Of a DNA stretch of 12,371 nucleotides, positions 1-12,371 are shown piece after piece (the stretch's first letter is position 1; every line of letters starts with the position of its first letter). A program made the translations under genes and the position numbers. The notes under the pieces are model-generated. The model searched no databases and was not told where the DNA came from. It saw nothing but the letters and a program-made list of their open reading frames with translations. This DNA is from a virus, in UHGV virus genome UHGV-0040703, one strand, 5' to 3'.

Positions 1-57
1 AAAACACAACCCGCTACGGGGGAGACTTACCCGAAATCTGATTTATTCAACAAAGCC
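1..57. mobile_element. End (terminal inverted repeat plus adjacent interior) of an IS903-family insertion sequence; the element body lies left of the window
   Basis: Reverse complement of 40..57 is GGCTTTGTTGAATAAATC, the 18-bp terminal IR of IS903 as recalled from Tn903-derived vectors. Sequence beyond the IR differs from the Tn903 IRL end, so this is the other end or a close relative. The IR abuts an interrupted hsdS frame at 58. Confidence 0.6.
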
Positions 58-124
58 CCCCCAATGGCAACCACTCAACCTCAACCCCATCCAGCAATTT
101 TTCCAGATAACTCATCTCGCTCAT
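58..124 (-). pseudogene. hsdS: 5' remnant of a type I specificity subunit gene (hsdS), 22 codons, truncated by the IS end
   Basis: Minus-strand ATG at 124..122 overlaps the hsdM stop (ATGA) and encodes [22 protein letters not shown], which matches the recalled EcoR124-type HsdS N-terminus. The frame runs straight into the IS IR, then stops after 3 codons. Confidence 0.55.
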
Positions 125-1683
125 TTCTGCACCTCGCAGCCTTCAATTTCAGCCACAATCGCATCAATATCTTTGCGCAACTGGTCGATTTTGCTGACCG
201 TGGTTTTCAGTTCTGCATTCAACTCAGCGATATCGATAATTTCGCGAGTATCTTTCGCTTCCACATAGCTGCTCACTGACAGGTTATAGTCATTAGCGAC
301 AACGGTCTCAAACGCGACAGATTTCGCCAGATGAGCAACATCTTCCTTGCTGGCAAATACCTGCATAATCTGTTCGATATGGGCATCGGTCAGGATATTG
401 TTGTTAGTCTCTTTTTTGAATAGCTCGCTGGCGTCAATAAACTGAACGTTGGTATCGGTTTTATGTTTAGACAGCACCAGAATGTTTACGGCAATGGTGG
501 TGCCAAAGAACAGGTTCGGAGCCAGTGAAATCACGGTTTCGACATAGTTATTATCGACCAGATACTGACGGATTTTCTGCTCCGCGCCGCCACGGTAAAA
601 AATACCCGGGAAGCAGACAATCGCAGCACGACCTTTGGCCGAAAGATAGTTCAGCGCATGTAATACAAACGCAAAGTCAGCTTTGGATTTGGGGGCCAGA
701 ACGCCAGCCGGGGCAAAACGTTCATCGTTAATCAGCGTCGGGTCATCGCTGCCAATCCATTTCACCGAATACGGCGGGTTAGAAACGATGGCATCAAACG
801 GTTTTTCATCTCTGAAGTGCGGTTCAGTCAGCGTATTGCCCAGCTTGATATCAAACTTGTCGTAGTTGATGTTGTGCAAAAACATGTTCATACGCGCCAG
901 GTTATAGGTCGTATGGTTGATTTCCTGACCAAAAAAACCTTCTTCGATGATATGGTCATCAAACTGTTTTTTAGCCTGCAACAACAGCGAACCGGAGCCT
1001 GCTGCCGGGTCGTAGATTTTGTTAACGTGGGTCTGCCCGTGCATAGCCAGTTGTGCAATCAGCTTAGAGACGTGCTGCGGTGTAAAGAACTCGCCGCCTG
1101 ACTTACCGGCATTTGCCGCATAGTTAGAGATCAGGAACTCATAGGCATCACCGAACAGGTCAATCTGATGTTCGTTGAAGTCACCAAGTTTTAACCCTTC
1201 AACCCCTTTCAGAACCGCAGCCAGGCGGGCATTTTTATCTTTAACGGTGTTACCCAGGCGGTTACTGGTGGTATCGAAATCAGCAAACAAACCTTTGATG
1301 TCAGCTTCTGAAGGATAACCGTAAGCAGAACTTTCGATAGCAACGAAGATGCTGTTTAAATCTGCATTCAGTCTGTCATTGGTATTTGCTTTCGCAGCCA
1401 CGTTGCAGAAAAGCTGACTTGGGTAGATGAAGTAGCCTTTGGTTTTGATGGCATCGTCTTTAATGTCATCAGTAATTACGCTGTCATCCAGTTTCGCATA
1501 ACAGATACTGTCATCACCGGCTTCAATATAACTGGAAAAATTTTCGCTGATAAAACGGTAGAAAAGTGCGCCCAGAACGTATTGCTTAAAATCCCATCCA
1601 TCGACCGAACCCCTGACATCGTTAGCAATTTGCCAGATTTGACGATGAAGCTCTGCACGTTGTTGAATACTTGTCATTTTCAT
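121..1683 (-). CDS. hsdM: Type I restriction-modification DNA methyltransferase subunit HsdM (N6-adenine), EcoR124-like type IC family
   Basis: 520-aa ORF with AdoMet-binding motif [10 protein letters not shown] and catalytic NPPY (in SNPPYSVKW). N-terminus [25 protein letters not shown] matches the recalled R124-family HsdM. Its stop overlaps the hsdS start. Confidence 0.9.
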
Positions 1684-1822
1684 CCACTTATTTCAGGCTT
1701 ATGTAATTGGATGTGATTCTACAGCAACTTGGATGCTTTAGCAGTTCGGACATTAGGCTACGAATGACCTGCCTAGAGGTTTGTTAAGCCGCAAAGTGCT
1801 GGTGCTTTATGCCTGTGAAGTT

Positions 1823-1853
1823 TATAATTGTGTACACATAACGAGTACACGAG
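1823..1853 (+). promoter_or_regulatory. phd/doc promoter -10 and operator palindromes
   Basis: TATAAT at 1823..1828, immediately followed by the perfect 10-bp palindrome TGTGTACACA (1829..1838) and a second GTACAC site (1845..1850), just upstream of the phd start. Consistent with Phd/Doc autoregulation at palindromic operators. Confidence 0.55.
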
Positions 1854-1859
1854 GTGTTT

Positions 1860-2081
1860 ATGCAATCCATTAACTTCCGTACCGCGCGTGGCAACCTTTC
1901 TGAAGTGCTCAACAATGTTGAGGCCGGGGAAGAGGTTGAAATCACCCGCAGAGGCCGTGAGCCAGCAGTAATTGTCAGCAAGGCTACTTTCGAAGCCTAC
2001 AAAAAAGCGGCGCTGGATGCTGAATTTGCATCCCTGTTTGACACCCTGGACTCCACCAACAAGGAACTGGTTAACCGATAA
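1860..2081 (+). CDS. phd: Phd antitoxin (prevent host death), 73 aa
   Basis: Translation [49 protein letters not shown]... matches recalled P1 Phd. Its stop overlaps the doc start (TAATG). Confidence 0.95.
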
Positions 2082-2461
2082 TGAGGCATATATCACCGGA
2101 AGAACTTATTGCGCTTCATGATGCGAATATAAACCGCTACGGCGGCCTGCCGGGAATGTCAGATCCGGGTAGGGCAGAGGCCATTATCGGGAGAGTTCAG
2201 GCCAGAGTTGCCTACGAAGAGATCACCGACCTTTTCGAAGTCTCCGCCACCTACCTGGTGGCTACGGCGAGAGGGCATATATTCAATGATGCCAATAAGC
2301 GTACCGCGCTAAACAGTGCGCTGTTATTTCTACGCCGTAACGGGGTGCAGGTATTTGATTCACCTGAACTGGCAGACCTTACCGTAGGGGCTGCGACTGG
2401 CGAGATATCTGTATCTTCTGTCGCCGCCACGTTACGTAGATTGTATGGTTCTGCGGAGTAG
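2081..2461 (+). CDS. doc: Doc toxin (death on curing; Fic-fold kinase targeting EF-Tu), 126 aa
   Basis: 126-aa [28 protein letters not shown]... translationally coupled to phd; matches recalled P1 Doc. Confidence 0.95.
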
Positions 2462-2465
2462 ATTA

Positions 2466-2645
2466 ATGGCACGCAAATACAACAAATTGTCCCGTGAAGC
2501 GTTAAAGATGCTTCTTGATGGCGTGAGTCGCCGCAAGGTAAAGCAATACCTGGTTGGTAAGCAAATTGGTGCCAGGACCGCTATTGCTGTGTTATGCCGT
2601 CAGGAAATGGCTGTGCTTAAACAGAGAATGCCGGGCAGCAGATAA
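2466..2645 (+). CDS. pdcB: Small basic protein, probable HTH DNA-binding (post-doc gene pdcB-like), 59 aa
   Basis: ATG at 2466 preceded by GGAG. Position immediately downstream of doc matches the P1 gene order phd-doc-pdcB-pdcA-lpa. Identity is assigned by synteny, not by remembered sequence. Confidence 0.6.
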   Translation: MARKYNKLSREALKMLLDGVSRRKVKQYLVGKQIGARTAIAVLCRQEMAVLKQRMPGSR

Positions 2646-2672
2646 AGCCCAATCAGTGATTAAAGGTGTGAT

Positions 2673-3716
2673 GTGAAAGCCGTAATTACTCCCTTTGTAC
2701 AGAAAGAGCTTGGCCTCGCCACGTTCAAAGTGGATCAGGAGGTCAGAAAGCTGGTGGAGGCTGGCCGTAAATTTATTATGGAGCCGGTGCCGCGTGAGTT
2801 AATCGAGCACATGGAAGACGGCCTCGTTGTTACCGAGCAAACCATGGCAACAAATGAGGCGTTGCAGCCGTTTTTTAACAGCGATGAACTGTTTCGCCGT
2901 ATTGGTGGAATTGACGCGCTGGTGGCGTGGTTGCGTAGGAAAGAGGGTCAATGCCAGGCCGCAGATCGTAGTTGGTGTGACAACCATATTGTCCACGCTG
3001 AACGAGACAATAGCGCTGTGTTGTTGTGCTGGCATCACGATAACCATTACCGGATGCGTGGTTTTAATGAGCTGAAAGAAACGCTGCACAATAATCGCGT
3101 TAACTGGATACTGGATGTCGCCCGTCAGGAAATGGGCCTTTCAAATAGCCATGATTTAAGTATTCAGGAGCTGTGCTGGTGGGCTTTCATGCGCAACATG
3201 ATGCACCTGATGCCGGAAGAAGTCTGCCGCATATCAATAAATAAGATGAAGGCTACTCCGCAGGATAGCGGACCTCTGAAAGAGGCGGATATTCGCCCGT
3301 ATGACGATCGCGCTACAGCATATGTTCAGATGATGGAAGAACGCGCCGCGCCGATGCGTGCAAAAGTATGCCCTGTGGATGTTGACTCCGACCCAGGTAT
3401 GGCGCATTTCAAAATACCAAAACTTCAATCGCTAAAATTGCCCGAGTACATGGACTTTGTGGCTTCCCGTCCATGCTGTGGCTGTGGAGCTGCGGGAGCT
3501 GGCGCTCACATTACGCCTTATATCGTTCGTCATAGTCGATTATGCGCGCATGACATTTATGCTATTCCTCTGTGCCAGTCATGCCAGCGTGATATTGAGC
3601 GTGACCGCGATAATTGGGAGAAGACGCACGGCAGGCTGGCGATGCATCAACGATTGTTCTTTGATTACGCGCTTGGAGTCGGCGCTATCACAAGTCACTC
3701 GTCGAGCGTTAGATAA
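2673..3716 (+). CDS. pdcA: Post-doc protein PdcA-like, 347 aa, with two Cys/His-rich clusters (possible zinc-binding, HNH-like)
   Basis: GTG start at 2673 with upstream AAAGGTG. Long ORF with Cys/His clusters around residues 94-125 and 270-305. Assigned by synteny between doc and lpa. Confidence 0.65.
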
Positions 3717-3717
3717 A

Positions 3718-3760
3718 ATTGCTCTAATGTATTGCTATTTCTTTAATCAAGGGTATTATA
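3718..3760 (+). promoter_or_regulatory. C1 operator overlapping a sigma70-like promoter for lpa
   Basis: ATTGCTCTAATGTATTG (3718..3734) matches 14 of 17 positions of the asymmetric C1 operator consensus ATTGCTCTAATAAATTT. -35 TTGCTA (3732..3737), 16-17 bp spacer, -10 TATTAT/ATTATA (3754..3760). Confidence 0.6.
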
Positions 3761-3804
3761 TTCGTCGTTGATTAGTTGACATGGGCTAATCAGTAGGTGA
3801 CAGG

Positions 3805-4257
3805 ATGTTACTTAACTGGCAGGGACGCCACTTCATGGAAATAAATCACTCACGAATAACATCGTACGAGATTGCGGATTACATGATCCGCACTAAATCT
3901 CTTCTATCAGCGAAAGAACTCGCAGCAATTCTTGAAAAGGAATACCCGCATCTGGATGTCGATAAGCGCGATGTTTATCTGCGCTTAAAGGCTATCGCTG
4001 TGTCTAAGTATTCGTCTGTTTTGATTGATGACAGTACACGCCCACGTAGATTTCAGATCCACTCTCTGAATCCTGAATTCTTTCGCCGTAGCCGCGCTCC
4101 GCGCCGGTTTGATGAAAAACTCCAGAACGAACTCTATATGACGCAGGACGAAAAGGAACGCCGGGAGCACCAGCCTTGGGTAATGGCGCGTCAACTTTTC
4201 AATAAGGTGGCCCGTCAGCACCGTCATTACGGTAATGCCACATCCGCACGTATCTGA
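3805..4257 (+). CDS. lpa: Late promoter activator Lpa (gene 10 product), about 150 aa
   Basis: ORF MLLNWQGRHFMEINHSRITSYEIADYMIRTK... with AGGTGA SD before the ATG at 3805 (alternative in-frame ATG at 3835). Position between pdcA and pacA and an upstream C1 operator fit P1 lpa. Confidence 0.8.
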   Translation: MLLNWQGRHFMEINHSRITSYEIADYMIRTKSLLSAKELAAILEKEYPHLDVDKRDVYLRLKAIAVSKYSSVLIDDSTRPRRFQIHSLNPEFFRRSRAPRRFDEKLQNELYMTQDEKERREHQPWVMARQLFNKVARQHRHYGNATSARI

Positions 4258-4280
4258 TTGATTGCTTGCCCGTTCCGGGC

Positions 4281-4330
4281 CTTTTGACATGTGACTTTCG
4301 TTACCCTCGCGTCAAAAAGAGTTTTATACG
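4281..4330 (+). promoter_or_regulatory. Candidate promoter region upstream of pacA (possibly an Lpa-dependent late promoter)
   Basis: Perfect TTGACA at 4284..4289; imperfect inverted repeat CTTTTGAC (4281..4288) / GTCAAAAA (4311..4318); TTATAC at 4324..4329 about 15 nt before the pacA SD (AAAGGAAG). Confidence 0.3.
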
Positions 4331-4343
4331 AAAGGAAGCATAA

Positions 4344-5537
4344 GTGACCTGGGACGATCACAAGAAGAATTTTGCTCGCCTGGCGCGAGATGGTGGTTAC
4401 ACCATCGCACAATATGCCGCCGAGTTTAATCTCAACCCAAACACCGCACGTCGTTATCTCCGTGCATTCAAAGAAGACACCGGAACAGCGGACAGCCGTA
4501 AGCCAAATAAGCCTGTCAGAAAACCACTAAAAAGCATGATCATTGATCACGCTAATGATCAACGTGCAAGTGATCACATTGTGGCTGAAATGGCTGAAAA
4601 ACAAAGAGTTAATGCTGTTGTCAGTGCCGCAGTCGAGAACGCTAAGCGCCAAAATAAGCGCATAAATGATCGTTCTGATGATCATGACGTGATCACCCGC
4701 GCCCACCGGACCTTACGTGATCGCCTGGAACGCGACACCCTGGATGATGATGGTGAACGCTTTGAATTCGAAGCTGGCGATTACCTGATAGATAACGTTG
4801 AAGCGCGGAAGGCCGCGCGCGCTATGTTGCGTCGATCCGGGGCCGATGTTCTGGAAACCACTCTTCTGGAAAAGTCTCTTTCTCATCTCCTTATGCTGGA
4901 GAACGCCAGGGATACGTGTATTCGCCTGGTGCAGGAAATGCGCGATCAGCAAAAAGACGATGATGAAGGTACTCCGCCTGAATACCGTATCGCGAGCATG
5001 CTAAACAGCTGTTCCGCGCAGATAAGCAGTCTGATCAACACCATTTACAGCATCCGGAATAACTATCGAAAAGAAAGCCGGGAGGCGGAAAAGCACGCTT
5101 TGTCTATGGGGCAAGCTGGCATTGTTAAGCTGGCATACGAACGAAAGCGTGAAAATAACTGGTCAGTGCTGGAAGCAGCTGAATTCATCGAGGCGCATGG
5201 CGGGAAAGTGCCGCCCCTGATGCTGGAGCAAATCAAAGCCGATCTGCGTGCTCCTAAGACCAATACCGATGATGAGGAAAGGCAAACAGCCGTCGGTGGC
5301 CCTTCTCTTGAAGATCTGGACAAAGTTGCGCGAGAACGGGCCGCCAACCGCCGCGCCGATGCCGCATTGTGGATTGAGCAGCGTAGGGAAGAAATCGCCG
5401 ATATCGTTGATACAGGCGGTTATGGAGATGTTGATACTGAAGGTGTATCAAACGACCCATGGCTGGAACAAGACCTGGACGAAGACGAGGAGGAAGACGA
5501 AGAAGTTACCCGCAAGCTATACGGGGATGATGATTAA
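4344..5537 (+). CDS. pacA: Packaging protein PacA (pacase/terminase small subunit), 397 aa
   Basis: GTG start with AAAGGAAG SD; translation [39 protein letters not shown]... The pac hexamer repeats lie inside its 5' portion, as in P1. Confidence 0.9.
4544..4733 (+). repeat. P1 pac site: seven TGATCA/TGATCG hexamers (each with a Dam GATC) in clusters of 3 and 4
   Basis: Hexamers at 4544, 4556, 4571 and at 4667, 4679, 4690, 4728. The 3+4 arrangement flanking the cleavage region matches the described P1 pac site. Confidence 0.85.
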
Positions 5538-7021
5538 TGGCCAGAAGTTGCGTAACGGATCCACGTTGGCGCGAGTTGGTGGCGCTATATCGTTATGACT
5601 GGATTGCGGCCGCTGATGTTTTGTTCGGCAAAACACCTACCTGGCAGCAGGATCTGATTATTGAGTCTGTGCAGGAACAGGGTAGCAAGACATCTGTTTC
5701 GTCTGGTCACGGTACCGGGAAATCAGACATGACTTCTATCATGATCATGTTGTTCATAATCATGTATCCCGGTGCCCGTGCCATTATCGTTGCGAACAAA
5801 ATTCAGCAGGTAATGACCGGTATATTCAAGTACATCAAGATAAACTGGGCTACGGCCACCAGCCGTTTTCCGTGGCTTGCTGATTATTTTGTTCTGACAG
5901 AAACCGCTTTTTATGAAGTTACTGGTAAAGGTGTATGGACTGTAGTACCGAAGGGCTTTCGTCTGGGAAGTGAATAAGCTCTCGCAGGTGAACACGCAGA
6001 TCATCTTCTGTATATTATCGATGAAGCCTCCGGTGTCAGTGATAGAGCTTTCGGTATCATCACCGGTGCTCTTACCGGACAGGATAACCGCATCTTATTG
6101 CTGTCACAGCCTACACGCCCAAGCGGCTATTTCTACGATACTCACCATAAACTGGCCAAGCGTCCTGGTAACCCTGATGGCGTTTATACGGCGATCACGC
6201 TTAACAGTGAGGAATCACCGCTGGTAACGCCAGCATTTATCAAAATGAAGCTGGCGGAGTACGGCGGGCGTGATAACCCTATGTACATGATTAAGGTACG
6301 CGGACTATTCCCTAAATCACAGGATGGCTTCCTTCTTGGACGTGATGAGGTTGAACGTGCGACGCGGCGGAAAGTCAAGATTGCCAAAGGATGGGGCTGG
6401 CTTGCATGTGTGGACGTTGCTGGTGGTACGGGACGGGATAAGTCCGTTATCAATATCATGATGGTGTCCGGCCAGAGAAATAAACGCCGTGTAATCAACT
6501 ATCGAATGCTGGAATACACAGACGTTACAGAAACGCAGCTTGCCGCCAAAATTTTCGCAGAATGTAATCCTGAGCGATTCCCAAATATCACCATAGCGAT
6601 AGACGGCGATGGCCTGGGTAAAGCAACGGCGGATCTGATGTACGAGTATTATGGTATTACCGTACAGCGTATACGCTGGGGTAAAAAGATGCATAGCCGT
6701 GAAGATAAGAGCCTGTACTTTGATAAACGTGCTTATGCCAACGTTCAAGCCGCAGAGGCCGTAAAATCTGGTCGTATGAGACTGGATAAGGGTAATGAAA
6801 CTATTGAGGAAGCGTCGAAAATCCCTGTAGGGATTAACTCCGCGGGTCAATGGAAAGTGATGAGTAAGGAGGATATGAAGAAAAAACTCAACCTGCACTC
6901 ACCAGACCATTGGGATACATATTGTTTCGCTATGCTGGCGGATTATGTTCCTCAGGATGAAGTGCTTAGCGTCGAAGACGAAGCGCAGGTTGATGAAGCT
7001 CTGGCATGGCTTAATGAATGA
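5537..7021 (+). pseudogene. pacB: pacB (terminase large subunit), interrupted by an in-frame TAA at 5975..5977
   Basis: One frame from 5537 to 7021 gives 494 codons, but codon 147 is TAA (..GFRLGSE*). The N-terminal fragment carries Walker A-like SGHGTGKS; the same frame resumes after the stop with [20 protein letters not shown] (Walker B). The ORF track splits it into 5537..5977 and 6098..7021. Confidence 0.75.
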
Positions 7022-7024
7022 ACA

Positions 7025-7067
7025 TTTGCTCTAATGAATTGTGTTTTTTAACTACCGATGTTACATT
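7025..7067 (+). promoter_or_regulatory. C1 operator-like 17-mer overlapping a candidate sigma70 promoter reading rightward
   Basis: TTTGCTCTAATGAATTG (7025..7041) matches 14 of 17 consensus positions. -35 TTGTGT (7039..7044), 17-bp spacer, -10 TACATT (7062..7067). Confidence 0.5.
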
Positions 7068-7173
7068 GAACCTGACCTCTTGCGCCTTGAGGCATTTTCG
7101 GTTTATGCTTATCAGGCACCTCATTAAAACGGGTGCCGGGATTGAGACCCCGGATAATGCAAAAGGCGACACA

Positions 7174-7195
7174 GACGCCAAAAGCGTCTTTTTTT
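7174..7195 (+). terminator. Rho-independent terminator (plus-strand)
   Basis: Stem AGACGC/GCGTCT around loop CAAAA, followed by T7 (7189..7195). Confidence 0.6.
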
Positions 7196-7221
7196 GTGTC
7201 ATGCCATCGCACAGCCATACG

Positions 7222-7340
7222 TAGCGTTTAGCTCAGAGATCAATGGTAGTGCTGGCTGGGCTGCCGAAAGGCAGGCCGGTTCCCTTTTGCGCCGGTAGTC
7301 TCAACCCAGTCAGTGCTACCGCCATTGAGATTGAGACCTC
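7222..7340 (+). ncRNA. Candidate structured regulatory RNA (c4-type antisense RNA candidate) upstream of the small ORF/antirepressor pair
   Basis: Long imperfect helix 7241..7260 with 7304..7326; internal GNRA hairpin CTGCC-GAAA-GGCAG (7261..7274); tRNA-like TAGCTCAG at 7229..7236. Two segments complement the downstream translation-initiation region: CCTTTTGC (7284..7291) with the SD GCAAAAGG (7362..7369), and CAATGG (7241..7246) with CCATTG (7376..7381) at the start codon. Confidence 0.4.
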
Positions 7341-7380
7341 ACGCGGTAGCTCCTTAAATTAGCAAAAGGAGGCTGCCATT

Positions 7381-7602
7381 GTGGCTACTATCCCTACCCC
7401 TGCTCATTCTGAATTTATCTGGCGCTTTTACTCCTGCCAAAAACGTCACTATCACTTCGTTATTGCACCGACAGAAGATGAGGCACGTTCTCAGCTTCCG
7501 GATGCTCCCTGTATTTTCTCTGCCCGCTTTTCTACCGATTCGCGCAATTCTCTCAGTTACTGGTGCCTCCCTATTAACGCTTCTGCTCAGGAGGGACTAT
7601 GA
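7381..7602 (+). CDS. Small protein, 73 codons, translationally coupled to the downstream antirepressor-like gene (icd-like position in an immI-type operon)
   Basis: GTG at 7381 eight nt after AAGGAGG (7366..7372); its stop overlaps the next ATG (ATGA at 7599..7602). An overlapping TTG-initiated frame (7379..7624) is the alternative. Confidence 0.45.
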   Translation: MATIPTPAHSEFIWRFYSCQKRHYHFVIAPTEDEARSQLPDAPCIFSARFSTDSRNSLSYWCLPINASAQEGL

Positions 7603-8711
7603 GAACGTCATTAGTCACCCGTGAAGAGATGATCGAGGCAATTGAACAGCACACTGCCTGTATCAGTACCAGGGATATACCGGGCGTTATTGCCAACTAC
7701 TTCATGATCACCAAACAACTTTACCGGAGAAAGGACAAACACGCGGTTCACCGCATTCTGCTAACCGATATCCGTGAATACCTGCTCGAACAGGGTCATC
7801 TGAATTACGCAACCGTCGCAGCCGAAGCACGCAAGGAGGCACACAGAATGAAAGCAACTAACGTTAAATCAGAAAAAATTTATGCACCTTCAGTTCAGGA
7901 ATCGGAACTGGTGGTTGTTCAGAATCAGCCGGATGAAATTCCCGTTCTGGAATGGCAGGGAGTACGTGTCGTGACAACCGAAACTCTTGCTAGAGGGTAT
8001 GGGGTCGATGAAGCCAATATTCGCAACAATTTGTCTCGCAACCTTGACCGCTTTGAAGAAGGTAAGCATTACTTTCTTCTAACTGGTTTAAAATTAAGAG
8101 AATTTAAGAACAGAGTAACCGGAAGTTACTCTGTTGGTAAGAACGCCAGAAGCCTTACACTCTGGACAGAGCGCGGCGCTGCACGCATGTCTAAGATCGT
8201 GGACACAAATGAAGCATGGGCATTCTTTGAAAAACTGGAAGACAGCTACTTCCGGCAAAAAGAACAGCAACCGGTTGCAATCCCCCAAACATTACCAGAA
8301 GCCCTACGCCTGGCTGCCGAACTGGCTGAACAAAAGCAGCTTCTGGAACAGAAAGCCCACCAGCTAAATCAGCAGCTGGTAGCCGCCGCTCCTAAGGTCG
8401 ATTTTGCCGACCGGGTATCAGTAGCTAAAGGGATCCTGATTGGGAATTTTGCAAAGGTTGTTGGACTTAAGCAAAACGCGCTGTTTGCCTGGTTACGGGA
8501 GAACGGCATCCTGATAGCGTCCGGTGGACGTAAAAATGTGCCGTTCCAGCAGTACATCAACGCGGGGTATTTCACGGTGAAAGAAGTGGTGCTGGATGAT
8601 GAAGATGGCTACCAGATACGGTTGACGCCTCAATTAACGGGTAAAGGCCAGCAGTGGTTGACGCGTAAACTGCTCGATGCTGGCTTGTTAAAACCGGTGG
8701 CGGCTGAATAA
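7599..8711 (+). CDS. ant: Antirepressor-like protein: ORF6N/KilA-N-type domain plus C-terminal KilAC domain, 370 aa, with nested in-frame start at 7848 (287 aa); Ant1/Ant2-type arrangement
   Basis: AGGAGG SD before the ATG at 7599; second strong SD AAGGAGG (7833..7839) before the in-frame ATG at 7848. Middle region VLEWQGVRVVTTETLARGYGVDEANI... resembles the ORF6N/Bro-N fold; C-terminal LPEALRLAAELAEQKQ...FADRVSVAKGILIGNFAKVVGLKQNALFAWLRENGIL...YINAGYFTVKEV resembles the KilAC signature. Confidence 0.65.
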   Translation: MRTSLVTREEMIEAIEQHTACISTRDIPGVIANYFMITKQLYRRKDKHAVHRILLTDIREYLLEQGHLNYATVAAEARKEAHRMKATNVKSEKIYAPSVQESELVVVQNQPDEIPVLEWQGVRVVTTETLARGYGVDEANIRNNLSRNLDRFEEGKHYFLLTGLKLREFKNRVTGSYSVGKNARSLTLWTERGAARMSKIVDTNEAWAFFEKLEDSYFRQKEQQPVAIPQTLPEALRLAAELAEQKQLLEQKAHQLNQQLVAAAPKVDFADRVSVAKGILIGNFAKVVGLKQNALFAWLRENGILIASGGRKNVPFQQYINAGYFTVKEVVLDDEDGYQIRLTPQLTGKGQQWLTRKLLDAGLLKPVAAE

Positions 8712-8718
8712 TGGAAGA

Positions 8719-8740
8719 ATGCCCGGTTGATGCCGGGCAT
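8719..8740. terminator. Hairpin between the convergent antirepressor-like gene and c1 (probable bidirectional terminator)
   Basis: 8-bp stem ATGCCCGG/CCGGGCAT with a 6-nt loop, flanked by AATTTATT on the plus strand and TCTTCCATTATT on the minus strand; lies between the stop codons at 8709..8711 and 8744..8746. Confidence 0.5.
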
Positions 8741-8743
8741 AAT

Positions 8744-9595
8744 TTATTGCGCGCTTTCGGGGTTGTCGTTTACTGGCTGCCCCTTCTTGGTTTTACGGCT
8801 GCGCGTAACTGATGCGGCTGACTTAACCTTTTTCTCTTCGCGAGTGATGGCAATTTGTTTTTTTACATTTTCAATATCTGCCAGGCGATATATTTTTGCT
8901 TGCGGCCAGCGGTCGCAGATGATCGGTTCTATGGAGTCATAAAGGCTAAATTTTGCTTTTTCGAATTCACCGTTGATGATAATTCCATCACGGAGAGTTT
9001 CATCGCAGATAAACACGCCACACAGTGGCACATGGTAACTAACTGATTTACCATCATTGTAGTTAGGGCTACTGGAAATGTAGTGGACGCGCAGCATTGT
9101 TTCGCTAAAGCCGTGTACGCGCATACGGAATTTTTCATCCTCCGGGTACTGCTTCATTAGCTCTTTTGTTGCTTCCAGGTTCTCTATGTATTTCGCACTG
9201 TGCTCATTGATCCCCGCGCTTTTTTGGATGCGAATATCCTTATCAATCAGATGAATAATGCGGCCAGCGGTCATGTTGACGCTGTTCACAGCCTCTGTCT
9301 GATAAGTTGTAACCTTACGCACACCGCGAAGGATGTTAGGCACTGGATATAAAATAGTCTTTGGGATATTGAGGTCTGGGTACTGTTCCAGTTCCCGCGC
9401 CATTAAAGTCCATTTATCAATTTCAGCCTGAATGCTGTCAGTTTCTTTGAACGGTAGAACGACAACCGGGCGTACAGGACGACCGTCGCTGGCTGTATCA
9501 ACGTGTTGGGCGCGTGCAACAGCTTTTTTTAGAAAGAGATCCCTGAAGCTGACGAACTCCTGGTACAGTTGTTCGCCGTAGACATAATTTATCAT
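8744..9595 (-). CDS. c1: C1 repressor of lysis (primary immunity repressor), 283 aa
   Basis: Translation MINYVYGEQLYQEFVSFRDLFLKKAVARAQHVDTASDGRPVRPVVVLPFKETDSIQAEIDKWTL... matches recalled P1 C1; 283 aa as in P1. Confidence 0.95.
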   Translation of the reverse strand: MINYVYGEQLYQEFVSFRDLFLKKAVARAQHVDTASDGRPVRPVVVLPFKETDSIQAEIDKWTLMARELEQYPDLNIPKTILYPVPNILRGVRKVTTYQTEAVNSVNMTAGRIIHLIDKDIRIQKSAGINEHSAKYIENLEATKELMKQYPEDEKFRMRVHGFSETMLRVHYISSSPNYNDGKSVSYHVPLCGVFICDETLRDGIIINGEFEKAKFSLYDSIEPIICDRWPQAKIYRLADIENVKKQIAITREEKKVKSAASVTRSRKTKKGQPVNDNPESAQ

Positions 9596-9689
9596 TGATC
9601 CTCCTCCAGAATTGACATGGCCAATAACGCCCGGCTGAGAAAACCGGTCATTACTGACCTATATTATAGAGGGATCAAACAAAAATAAT

Positions 9690-9706
9690 AGATTTATTAG
9701 TGCATT
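9690..9706 (-). promoter_or_regulatory. C1 operator-like site between coi and c1
   Basis: AGATTTATTAGTGCATT matches 14 of 17 positions of the reverse-complement consensus AAATTTATTAGAGCAAT. Confidence 0.4.
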
Positions 9707-9915
9707 TATTGTGAGTCTAACTGGTTAGTTGCCATGAGATATTCGATTGTGTCAGTGAGGTCATCCAGGTCGTCTTGGGTGATGCGGTACTCCTGATTGG
9801 ATATCTTTGAGTAGTGTTCAGCAATGGCGCGGGCAGCGTCGGTTTCGGCAGGGTCTACAGATAAAGCGTTAGAGCAATGTCTAACGTCGTCGATGGTTGG
9901 TTGAATGAAAGCCAT
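9706..9915 (-). CDS. coi: Coi, C1 inactivator, 69 aa
   Basis: 69-aa ORF MAFIQPTIDDVRHCSNALSVDPAETDAARAIAEHYSK... immediately upstream of c1 on the same strand, as in P1 immC. Confidence 0.85.
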   Translation of the reverse strand: MAFIQPTIDDVRHCSNALSVDPAETDAARAIAEHYSKISNQEYRITQDDLDDLTDTIEYLMATNQLDSQ

Positions 9916-10153
9916 AATTATGCCTCACTGTATTGACAACACAGAGCCTGAAGCTCTGACCTACTGTTTCACCCATGATCCATGCTGGGGTAATCTAACA
10001 ACATTGCGCTGTGTGTAAGATGAGCAATGCATAGCTGTAATGCCGTTGTATAAGGTTTCCCTGTTTGCTCATTTCCTTCTGAGCCGCTCTACAACGCTGA
10101 AGACACATTAAATAGTGAATCCAAAGTCGTATTACGTAACGGCGGCAAAACTA

Positions 10154-10170
10154 TAATTTATTAGAGCAAT
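10154..10170 (-). promoter_or_regulatory. C1 operator (Op99-type), minus orientation
   Basis: TAATTTATTAGAGCAAT matches 16 of 17 positions of the reverse-complement consensus. Confidence 0.65.
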
Positions 10171-10236
10171 TGTCAAACAACTATGAAAAACAATCCAGTT
10201 TTTGGCTGGTGGAGTGGGATTTTTCTCTCAAAATTT

Positions 10237-10253
10237 ATTGCTCTAATAATTCT
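10237..10253 (+). promoter_or_regulatory. C1 operator (Op99-type), plus orientation
   Basis: ATTGCTCTAATAATTCT matches 15 of 17 consensus positions. Confidence 0.65.
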
Positions 10254-10296
10254 TGATTTTTATGCGCAGCTGGACGTAAACTCCTCTTCGGACCTA

Positions 10297-10330
10297 ATAA
10301 CTTCGTATAGCATACATTATACGAAGTTAT
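10297..10330. other. loxP site for Cre recombination (13-bp inverted arms, 8-bp spacer)
   Basis: Exact ATAACTTCGTATA-GCATACAT-TATACGAAGTTAT. Confidence 0.98.
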
Positions 10331-10349
10331 CTTAAGGGTTATTGAATAT

Positions 10350-10479
10350 GATCAATTTACCTGTAAATCCATACAGTTCAATACCTTAGCAGGTCAAATA
10401 GTGATCATTTGATCAAGGTTGCGCTACGTAAAATCTGTGAAAAGTTGGCGGTGTTAGTCCTACAGATTTCGCGTAGCGC
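10350..10479 (+). promoter_or_regulatory. cre upstream regulatory region: Dam GATC cluster and an 18-bp imperfect inverted repeat
   Basis: GATC at 10350, 10403 and 10411 (TGATCATTTGATCA); inverted repeat GCGCTACGTAAAATCTGT (10421..10438) / ACAGATTTCGCGTAGCGC (10462..10479) with a 23-nt spacer. Dam-sensitive cre promoters have been described for P1. Confidence 0.4.
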
Positions 10480-10511
10480 ACTTAGCACCACCAATCAATC
10501 AGAGGTGAAAA

Positions 10512-10733
10512 ATGGGATATTCAACTGCTAAAGTGTCCACTCATCTTGAGCTTGAGAAAAACCGTGGTTACTGGCGGGCAAAAGGGTTTGATCGTGATAG
10601 TTGCCAACTGTCATTATCGCGCGGTGAAGAGAAAATAGAACGCACGCGCGGTCGCTGGCGTTTCTATGACGAGAACCATAAACAGGTAAAGGCAGAGCCG
10701 ATCCTGTACACTTTACTTAAAACCATCATCTGA
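10512..10733 (+). CDS. Hypothetical small basic protein (73 aa) immediately upstream of cre
   Basis: ATG at 10512 four nt after GAGGTG; its stop is 7 nt before the cre ATG. No recognised family; I do not recall it as an annotated P1 gene. Confidence 0.3.
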   Translation: MGYSTAKVSTHLELEKNRGYWRAKGFDRDSCQLSLSRGEEKIERTRGRWRFYDENHKQVKAEPILYTLLKTII

Positions 10734-10740
10734 GTGTTAA

Positions 10741-11772
10741 ATGTCCAATTTACTGACCGTACACCAAAATTTGCCTGCATTACCGGTCGATGCAACGAGT
10801 GATGAGGTTCGCAAGAACCTGATGGACATGTTCAGGGATCGCCAGGCGTTTTCTGAGCATACCTGGAAAATGCTTCTGTCCGTTTGCCGGTCGTGGGCGG
10901 CATGGTGCAAGTTGAATAACCGGAAGTGGTTTCCCGCAGAACCTGAAGATGTTCGCGATTATCTTCTATATCTTCAGGCGCGCGGTCTGGCAGTGAAAAC
11001 TATCCAGCAACATTTGGGCCAGCTAAATATGCTTCATCGTCGGTCCGGGCTGCCACGACCAAGTGACAGCAATGCTGTTTCACTGGTCATGCGACGGATC
11101 CGAAAAGAAAACGTTGATGCCGGTGAGCGTGCAAAACAGGCGCTGGCGTTCGAACGCACTGATTTCGACCAGGTTCGTTCACTCATGGAAAATAGCGATC
11201 GCTGCCAGGATATACGTAATCTGGCATTTCTGGGGATTGCTTATAACACCCTGTTACGTATAGCCGAAATTGCCAGGATCAGAGTTAAAGATATCTCACG
11301 TACTGACGGTGGGAGAATGTTAATCCATATTGGCAGAACGAAAACGCTGGTTAGCACCGCTGGTGTAGAGAAGGCACTTAGTCTGGGGGTAACTAAACTG
11401 GTTGAGCGATGGATTTCTGTCTCTGGTGTGGCTGATGATCCGAATAACTACTTGTTTTGCCGTGTCAGAAAAAATGGTGTTGCCGCGCCATCTGCCACCA
11501 GCCAGCTATCAACTCGCGCCCTGGAAGGGATTTTTGAAGCAACTCACCGATTGATTTACGGGGCTAAGGATGACTCTGGCCAGAGGTACCTGGCCTGGTC
11601 TGGACACAGTGCCCGTGTCGGAGCCGCGCGAGATATGGCCCGCGCCGGAGTTTCAATACCGGAGATCATGCAAGCTGGTGGCTGGACCAACGTAAATATT
11701 GTCATGAACTATATCCGTAACCTGGATAGTGAAACAGGGGCAATGGTGCGCCTGCTGGAAGATGGCGATTAG
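10741..11772 (+). CDS. cre: Cre tyrosine site-specific recombinase, 343 aa
   Basis: Translation MSNLLTVHQNLPALPVDATSDEVRKNLMDMFRDRQAFSEHTWKMLLSVCRSWAAWCKLNNRKWFPAEPEDVRDYLLYLQARGLAVKTIQQHLGQLNMLHRRSGLPRPSDSNAVSLVMRRIRKENVDAGERAKQALAFERTDFDQVRSLMENSDRCQDIRNLAFLGIAYNTLLRIAEIARIRVKDISRTDGGRMLIHIGRTKTLVSTAGVEKALSLGVTKLVERWISVSGVADDPNNYLFCRVRKNGVAAPSATSQLSTRALEGIFEATHRLIYGAKDDSGQRYLAWSGHSARVGAARDMARAGVSIPEIMQAGGWTNVNIVMNYIRNLDSETGAMVRLLEDGD is P1 Cre. Confidence 0.98.
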   Translation: MSNLLTVHQNLPALPVDATSDEVRKNLMDMFRDRQAFSEHTWKMLLSVCRSWAAWCKLNNRKWFPAEPEDVRDYLLYLQARGLAVKTIQQHLGQLNMLHRRSGLPRPSDSNAVSLVMRRIRKENVDAGERAKQALAFERTDFDQVRSLMENSDRCQDIRNLAFLGIAYNTLLRIAEIARIRVKDISRTDGGRMLIHIGRTKTLVSTAGVEKALSLGVTKLVERWISVSGVADDPNNYLFCRVRKNGVAAPSATSQLSTRALEGIFEATHRLIYGAKDDSGQRYLAWSGHSARVGAARDMARAGVSIPEIMQAGGWTNVNIVMNYIRNLDSETGAMVRLLEDGD

Positions 11773-11822
11773 CCATTAACGCGTAAATGATTGTTCTAAT
11801 TCTTTGATATTTATGGTGACAT

Positions 11823-12134
11823 ATGAGAAAGGATTTCAACATCGACGGAAAATATGTAGTGCTGTCTGTAAGCACTAATATTCAGTCGCCAGCCGTCATT
11901 GTCACTGTAAAGCTGAGCGATAGAATGCCTGATATTGACTCAATATCCGTTGCGTTCCCTGTCAAAAGTATGCGTGGTGCTGAACATTTCGTGATGAATG
12001 CCACCGAGGAAGAAGCACGGCGCGGTTTTGCTAAAGTAGTGTCTGACTTTGGCGAACTCTTGGATAAGGTTAACAATGTCCTTTCAATCAGTTCAGCAAG
12101 GTCCAAAGCGTTAACAGCTTCCATGATGAAATAA
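11823..12134 (+). CDS. cra: Cre-associated small protein (cra-like), 103 aa
   Basis: ORF directly downstream of cre with GGTGA before the ATG; assigned by synteny with P1 (cre then cra). Confidence 0.55.
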   Translation: MRKDFNIDGKYVVLSVSTNIQSPAVIVTVKLSDRMPDIDSISVAFPVKSMRGAEHFVMNATEEEARRGFAKVVSDFGELLDKVNNVLSISSARSKALTASMMK

Positions 12135-12158
12135 AAAAAGCCTGGCAAGGAACCAGGC
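12133..12158 (-). terminator. Rho-independent terminator oriented for minus-strand transcripts
   Basis: Stem GCCTGG/CCAGGC around loop CAAGGAA, preceded on the plus strand by A7, which is a U7 tract after the hairpin on the minus strand. Confidence 0.55.
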
Positions 12159-12261
12159 TGCACAAAAGAGCGGGTTTGTGTTCCGCATCCAATCAATCAG
12201 AAAGGAGTATAGCACATAGATACTAAAGTGAAAAAATGTGACTGAAGATAAACAATATAAC

Positions 12262-12285
12262 ATTGCTCTAATTGATTGTTATAAT
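12262..12285 (+). promoter_or_regulatory. C1 operator-like site with adjacent -10 element (Op2-type position after cre/cra)
   Basis: ATTGCTCTAATTGATTG (12262..12278) matches 14 of 17 consensus positions; TATAAT at 12280..12285. Confidence 0.5.
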
Positions 12286-12316
12286 TGGGCCGTGGCGTTA
12301 GTCAACTACGAAGACG

Positions 12317-12371
12317 GGTAGTGACTCCAACTTACTGATAGTGTTTTATGTTCAGATAATGCCCGATGACC
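12317..12371. mobile_element. IS1 terminal inverted repeat and adjacent interior (IRR-type end); element continues beyond the window
   Basis: GGTAGTGACTCCAACTTACTGATAGTGTTTTATGTTCAGATAATGCCCGATGAC matches the recalled IS1 end GGTAATGACTCCAACTTATTGATAGTGTTTTATGTTCAGATAATGCCCGATGAC with 2 mismatches. Confidence 0.8.

Follow-up and report, generated by a model that had tools for sequence, protein, structure and literature searches.

The left end of the 12,371-nucleotide stretch of viral DNA analysed here (UHGV virus genome UHGV-0040703, hereafter the window) is very probably the decayed edge of a type IC (EcoR124/EcoDXXI/EcoprrI) restriction-modification cassette belonging to a P1-like element. 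On this reading, the locus is r-m-, and IS903B marks a breakpoint and forms the left arm of an IS-bounded P1 fragment. An intact methyltransferase gene, hsdM, is followed by the first 22 codons of the specificity gene, hsdS, and then directly by the end of the insertion sequence. The features discussed below are listed with their window coordinates.

1..57, plus strand: end of IS903B (IS5 family, IS903 group), terminal 57 bp, 57/57 identical to IS903/IS903B copies
59..124, minus strand: hsdS remnant, 22 native codons, 22/22 identical to residues 1-22 of the 404 of EcoR124II HsdS (7BST_A)
121..1683, minus strand: hsdM, type IC methyltransferase subunit, intact, 520 aa from the first ATG in a single ORF
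1677, minus strand: alternative, PGAP-style hsdM start, 2 codons 3' of the first ATG
1684..1783, no strand: DNA specific to the cassette, upstream of hsdM; P1, P7 and other elements without hsd become homologous at 1778/1784
1860..2081 and 2081..2461, plus strand: phd and doc (Pfam PhdYeFM_antitox and Fic/DOC), 98-99% identical to P1 phd-doc
12317..12371, no strand: IS1-family end, 96-98% identical to annotated IS1/InsB ends, outside the hsd locus

An EcoR124-type IC system, the P1-type site adjacent to phd-doc and disruption by an IS are all already known, and one more mobile defence system inactivated by an IS carries little weight by itself. There is, however, a caution for annotation, namely that the presence of an intact hsdM at this site does not justify counting a working defence system.

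An intact EcoR124-like methyltransferase gene

The HsdM protein aligns end to end with EcoR124II HsdM (PDB 7BST_D), its best match among all PDB chains, and is identical to it at 518 of 520 residues (99.6%), the two differences being N243D and N479T. In the PDB chain search, HsdM of the type IA enzyme EcoKI reached just 67 bits. The label 'type IC, EcoR124-like', given to this protein in the original prediction, can therefore be taken literally, and the protein groups with type I methyltransferases. The gene had also been described as intact with its methyltransferase motifs, and we find a 520-aa ORF with the Pfam domains N6_Mtase (E=4.5e-121) and HsdM_N (E=8e-17), the AdoMet-binding motif DPAAGSG at residues 225-231 and the catalytic motif NPPY at residues 302-305. 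An exact-protein look-up found the same HsdM in two complete hsdM-hsdS-hsdR loci of other assemblies. A consensus scan of window 1..1900 for promoters and terminators returned counts equal to the shuffled expectation, with nothing upstream of hsdM.

The hsdS remnant and its junction with IS903B

The hsdS start codon (124..122) overlaps the hsdM stop codon as ATGA, and both the hsdM > hsdS order and the stop/start overlap of type IC loci hold in the window. EcoR124I/II (plasmid R124; PDB 7BST/7BTO) shares this overlap, as it does HsdM, HsdS residues 1-22, the P1-like flanking DNA and the position of phd-doc upstream of hsdM. The last native hsdS base is 58, and IS903B begins at 57 and runs leftwards; the cut after codon 22 had been placed with exact coordinates. 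Reading on, the fused frame adds G-L-C and stops at 49..47, giving a 25-aa ORF (124..47) that ends inside the IS. In two relatives that share the junction, the Escherichia coli TUM14664 chromosome and plasmid pE102651_87, PGAP labels the same 66 nt, again next to IS903B, as a partial 'restriction endonuclease subunit S'.

The window differs from EcoR124I/II in keeping 22 of 404 HsdS codons. The 382 missing residues include both target-recognition domains, whose loss had been anticipated, and the central TAEL-repeat region, which is present in the HsdS of relatives, is deleted as well. Neither the ORF list nor Pfam gave an hsdR-like ORF within the window, in agreement with the earlier statement that no hsdR is in view.

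The assignment of window 1..57 to the end of an IS903-family element was likewise correct. These bases are 57/57 identical to IS903 in HK022 and O276 (E=5e-20), and equally to both full 1057-bp IS903B copies in TUM14664 and in pE102651_87. The 18-bp terminal inverted repeat of IS903B, GGCTTTGTTGAATAAATC, lies at 57..40 when read on the minus strand, and the transposase CDS of the relatives ends at the base equivalent to window base 1. In these relatives the IS903B copies are complete at 1057 bp and encode a 322-aa transposase.

Consequences for function

The type I methyltransferase has the composition M2S1 and the nuclease R2M2S1. HsdS is reportedly needed for both activities (Loenen et al. 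2014), since it is said to provide DNA recognition as well as the scaffold for assembly. With the IS903B end abutting hsdS codon 22, a complete specificity subunit, with its two target-recognition domains and two conserved regions, could presumably not be made. Without target-recognition domains, and with no hsdR in view, the window locus would thus be without specificity and without a nuclease. Because the M2S1 methyltransferase and the R2M2S1 nuclease both need the missing HsdS, the locus alone is predicted to be r-m-, supporting neither modification nor restriction and leaving HsdM as an orphan subunit. The original prediction that no methylation or restriction specificity is possible stands for the locus alone; as a general statement it holds only if no type IC HsdS is supplied in trans. 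As restriction and modification would vanish together, the loss of hsdS should not be lethal to the host, which makes it a 'safe' way to lose a type I system.

Truncated forms of HsdS can be functional: PMC12707154 refers to EcoDXXI hsdS::Tn5 and to deletion mutants of EcoR124I (its refs 165-168). Those proteins retain the whole N-terminal recognition domain and the central region, and they dimerise on a palindromic site, whereas the 22 residues left in the window hold neither element. This route of rescue by a half-HsdS is therefore closed, and we rejected the possibility that the 22-aa stub acts like the functional mutants, which depend on an entire recognition domain together with the central conserved region.

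The junction in other genomes

A 160-nt query spanning the junction found a complete match in two of 5,426 complete E. coli genomes and in none of 72,556 PLSDB plasmids. The carriers, identical at 160/160 bases, are the TUM14664 chromosome (NZ_CP135649, Japan) and plasmid pE102651_87 (NZ_CP189663, Gambia). Scanning viral contigs with a 38-nt junction sequence revealed a third carrier, a single IMG/VR contig (UViG_2579779002_000007, hereafter L008), which reaches 318 bp further into IS903B than the window does. The same 38-nt scan gave 0 matches in the genome contig collection and 0 in the metagenome contig collection.

The window carries about 55-57 bp of IS at both of its ends, the typical k-mer overlap of short-read contigs broken at repeats. 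This might suggest that the IS/hsdS junction is an assembly artefact, i.e. a chimeric contig end produced by repeat collapse. Against this, the identical junction occurs in two independent complete assemblies from different countries, and L008 has the junction together with its additional IS sequence, so that we regard an artefact as extremely improbable.

The window itself is nevertheless probably a short-read contig broken at repeats. Since it ends in 57 bp of IS903B on one side and 55 bp of IS1 on the other, in the pattern of a short-read assembler, the absence of hsdR from view is in part a limit of the contig. The IS1 end lies between c8 and ref, at about P1 coordinate 2016/2017, and is absent from the relatives that are 99.8% identical to the window. 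A breakpoint at 12316 common to the window and TUM14664, which would have pointed to a shared rearrangement, was considered and rejected: at 12317, TUM14664, pE102651_87 and P1 carry on with backbone, where the window has IS1.

What adjoins IS903B in the resolved relatives

On the far side of IS903B, TUM14664 has proV, which is unrelated to hsd, and pE102651_87 has a truncated ORF, a resolvase and the Tn5403 transposase; the remainder of hsdS and hsdR are absent beside IS903B in both. A search for a target-site duplication had been suggested as a check. No 9-bp duplication surrounds the hsdS-side copy in TUM14664 or pE102651_87, where the far flanks (GTTTCAGGC / ATAACAAAG) differ from CCCCCAATG. 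The reciprocal junction, in which the 3' part of hsdS would be followed by CCCCCAATG and the left end of IS903B, was sought with a 71-nt chimeric query and is found in none of the 5,426 E. coli genomes or 72,556 plasmids; the query gave IS-only matches with chance similarity in the flank. The best near-match lies at yegS-yegR and was rejected as an unrelated, chance resemblance.

These observations bear on the simplest account of the junction, in which IS903B merely inserted into hsdS, and the rest of hsdS and an intact hsdR lie directly beyond the 1057-bp element in the source genome. Both halves of the interrupted gene are kept elsewhere in this cassette (hsdS::ISEc68 in pXD35003 and hsdM::IS903B in NZ_CP034659), and the window stops 57 bp into the IS, with its own left flank out of view. 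Yet both resolved carriers of the junction are without the 3' part of hsdS, hsdR or a target duplication at this IS copy, and the reciprocal junction did not turn up in either collection. We therefore think a simple insertion unlikely. The suggestion that hsdR lies beyond the IS finds no support in the junction-sharing sequences, which have unrelated DNA there, and is by extension unlikely for the window's own genome. From these relatives we infer that the left-hand structure of the window's genome is the same as theirs. IS903B would then be a breakpoint, at which the 3' part of hsdS and hsdR were likely lost by IS-mediated deletion or recombination.

An IS903B-bounded P1 fragment

TUM14664 and pE102651_87 are 99.8% identical to the window over 1..12316. 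Each also has mat interrupted, 17.5 kb to the right, by another IS903B copy in direct orientation, so that a P1 fragment running from hsdM' to mat' is enclosed by two IS copies. The unit occupies 14001-32575 of the TUM14664 chromosome record extract, with its direct IS903B copies at 14001-15057 and 31519-32575, and 11001-29575 of the pE102651_87 extract. In TUM14664 the unit is 18,575 bp (18.6 kb) long and has a 9-bp duplication, GTTTCAGGC, at its outer ends. The empty site, with the TUM14664 flanks joined by a single GTTTCAGGC, occurs uninterrupted in 5,416 of 5,426 E. coli genomes and lies in the nrdF-proV intergenic region. From the duplication and the contiguous empty site, it follows that the TUM14664 unit entered the chromosome by transposition as a composite element; it is a composite transposon with phd-doc, c1, cre-loxP and pac. 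In pE102651_87, the mat-side IS903B carries a duplication of its own, GTTGGAACG, so this copy is a simple insertion.

The junction-sharing relatives suggest a link between this composite unit and the window, whose IS903B-bounded P1 fragment (hsdM to mat') may likewise be able to move as a composite transposon. The window is a different molecule from the two resolved relatives: hsdM has lost 1 bp in the relatives, pacB 147 is a sense codon there and IS1 is missing at 12317, while the window has an intact hsdM, a nonsense codon in pacB and the IS1 end.

A further proposal, which we hold to be unlikely, is that the window is part of an active IS903B composite transposon that moves several P1 functions together (addiction by phd-doc, immunity by c1/coi/ant, cre-loxP and pac) into chromosomes and unrelated plasmids. 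If true, the replicon carrying such a unit could be stabilised by it and made immune to P1 superinfection. It would also place pac and loxP sites in the chromosome, where superinfecting P1-like phages could start packaging or recombine, so that host genes nearby would be transduced directionally and at high frequency. On this view, the patches of synonymous recombination seen in the orphan hsdM, described below, would record repeated meetings with incoming P1-like elements. That a large stretch of P1 carrying addiction, immunity, cre-lox and pac has moved, as an IS903B composite transposon, into the chromosome of an E. coli strain is an only mildly interesting by-product of this work.

The IMG/VR contig departs from the window at window 9998, and the new sequence (L008 10317-10778) begins with GGAAGGTGCGAATAAG, which resembles an IS5-family terminal repeat. 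If this is right, the point of divergence would mark a further place where an IS has broken this P1 fragment.

Variation in hsdM among the junction carriers

All differences within 1..1860 among the four junction-sharing sequences fall in window 640-1531, in the middle of hsdM. Over 9,998 bp, L008 and the window disagree at 16 positions, every one of them from 938 to 1531. TUM14664 has 10 substitutions and the deletion within 1099 to 1465, compared with 9 differences in the other 10.8 kb. Nearly all of the hsdM differences are at third codon positions, and they form three mutually distinct patches. The pattern resembles the outcome of several rounds of gene conversion, in which the orphan hsdM recombined with other type IC alleles once the IS was in place, the donor alleles presumably being carried on co-resident or incoming P1-like elements. 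Alternatively, for short-read assemblies, the mosaic could stem from a consensus that collapsed two alleles.

The deletion in TUM14664 and pE102651_87 removes 1 bp at the position of window 1465, in codon 73, and the gene is annotated there as 'frameshifted', which is consistent with a dispensable gene. The hsdM of L008 has no stop and no frameshift.

A rival explanation is that the orphan HsdM is still used, and is kept functional, by pairing with HsdS (and HsdR) of another type IC locus in the same cell. Type I families were classically defined by subunit complementation. The protein is identical to that of two complete systems, the gene is undamaged in both the window and L008, and the third-position mosaic (640..1531), as a signature of recombination, implies past co-residence with another type IC hsdM. 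On the other hand, hsdM is frameshifted in two of the four junction carriers, a complete system in the same cell would itself supply hsdM and so leave the orphan copy without selection, and the mosaic may be the consensus artefact of two co-occurring alleles just described. On balance, we judge continued use of HsdM improbable.

The P1-type context of the cassette

The hsd genes sit in a backbone that is syntenic with P1-like (Punavirus) records at 96-99% DNA identity, in the order phd, doc, pdcA, pdcB, lpa, pacA, pacB, ash-icd-ant, c1, coi, loxP, cra, cre and c8. The phd-doc pair, the P1 addiction module and a constant neighbour of type IC hsd loci, starts 177 bp from hsdM. Homology to the hsd-less elements P1, P7, RCS47, SJ46 and D6 begins at window 1778/1784, which corresponds to P1 coordinate 87970 at the end of humD, and the right-hand boundary between cassette and P1 backbone therefore lies at about 1778-1784.

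In intact relatives (pXD35003, NZ_CP034659 and the relative L010), the order is hsdM > hsdS > hsdR, followed by pap and pmgS, with phd-doc on the other side; hsdR carries the Pfam domain EcoR124_C in all three. The hsd cassette thus occupies the interval between pap and phd-doc, where it stands in for P1 pmgT-pmgU-pmgV-upfMNO-hot-lxr-humD. The type IC cassettes of the P1-like phage-plasmids pXD35003, vB_EcoM-673R5 and phi456 share position and orientation with the window, as well as 96-98% DNA identity over hsdM-phd-doc. They differ in that hsdS and hsdR are normally present, whereas the window is cut at hsdS codon 22.

The association has been on record for a long time. Notes in the P1 GenBank entry match P1 84263-84482, at 96-98% identity, to sequence downstream of the hsdR genes of EcoDXXI and R124/3, and 87969-88647 (phd-doc), at 98%, to sequence upstream of the hsd locus of EcoDXXI. 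Type IC loci flanked by P1-homologous DNA are attributed to Tyndall et al. 1997 (reference 364 of PMC12707154), and pmgT..humD is counted, as 'variable region 8', among the eight highly variable regions described in a survey of P1-like phage-plasmids (PMC9603915). Of window 1..2500, ≥80% is present in at least 608 PLSDB plasmids; for the whole window, the same threshold is reached by 273 of 5,426 complete E. coli genomes. The system had been called accessory cargo, which is borne out to the extent that P1 has pmgT..humD at this position, but its presence is no surprise. This variable region has long been known to hold, as its standard alternative content, the type IC hsd cassette, which beside phd-doc is a routine, exchangeable module of P1-like phage-plasmids.

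Other IS elements have struck the cassette. ISEc68 interrupts hsdS in pXD35003 (6635-7615 of the extract) with hsdR downstream, IS903B interrupts hsdM in NZ_CP034659 (6588-7644 of the extract) with hsdS and hsdR downstream, and an IS1 lies in hsdS of phage SJ1. Inactivation of the type IC cassette by IS elements in P1-like elements appears to be recurrent and independent.

Several features of the backbone were observed in passing. The pacB gene (5537..7021, plus strand) has a premature TAA at codon 147 (5975-5977), where TUM14664 has GAA and L008 has the base of the window; a prophage with this nonsense codon would be packaging-defective. An ash / icd-like / ant module lies between pacB and c1 at 7242-8711, its ant gene encoding a 370-aa antirepressor with ORF6N and KilAC domains. 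In P1, c1 directly follows pacB, while the ash-icd-ant module is often present in P1-like plasmids matching the window. An exact 34-bp loxP is found at 10297-10330, upstream of cra-cre, and the P1 pac site is represented by two clusters of TGATCA/G hexamers within pacA (4537-4690); loxP and pac are both intact.
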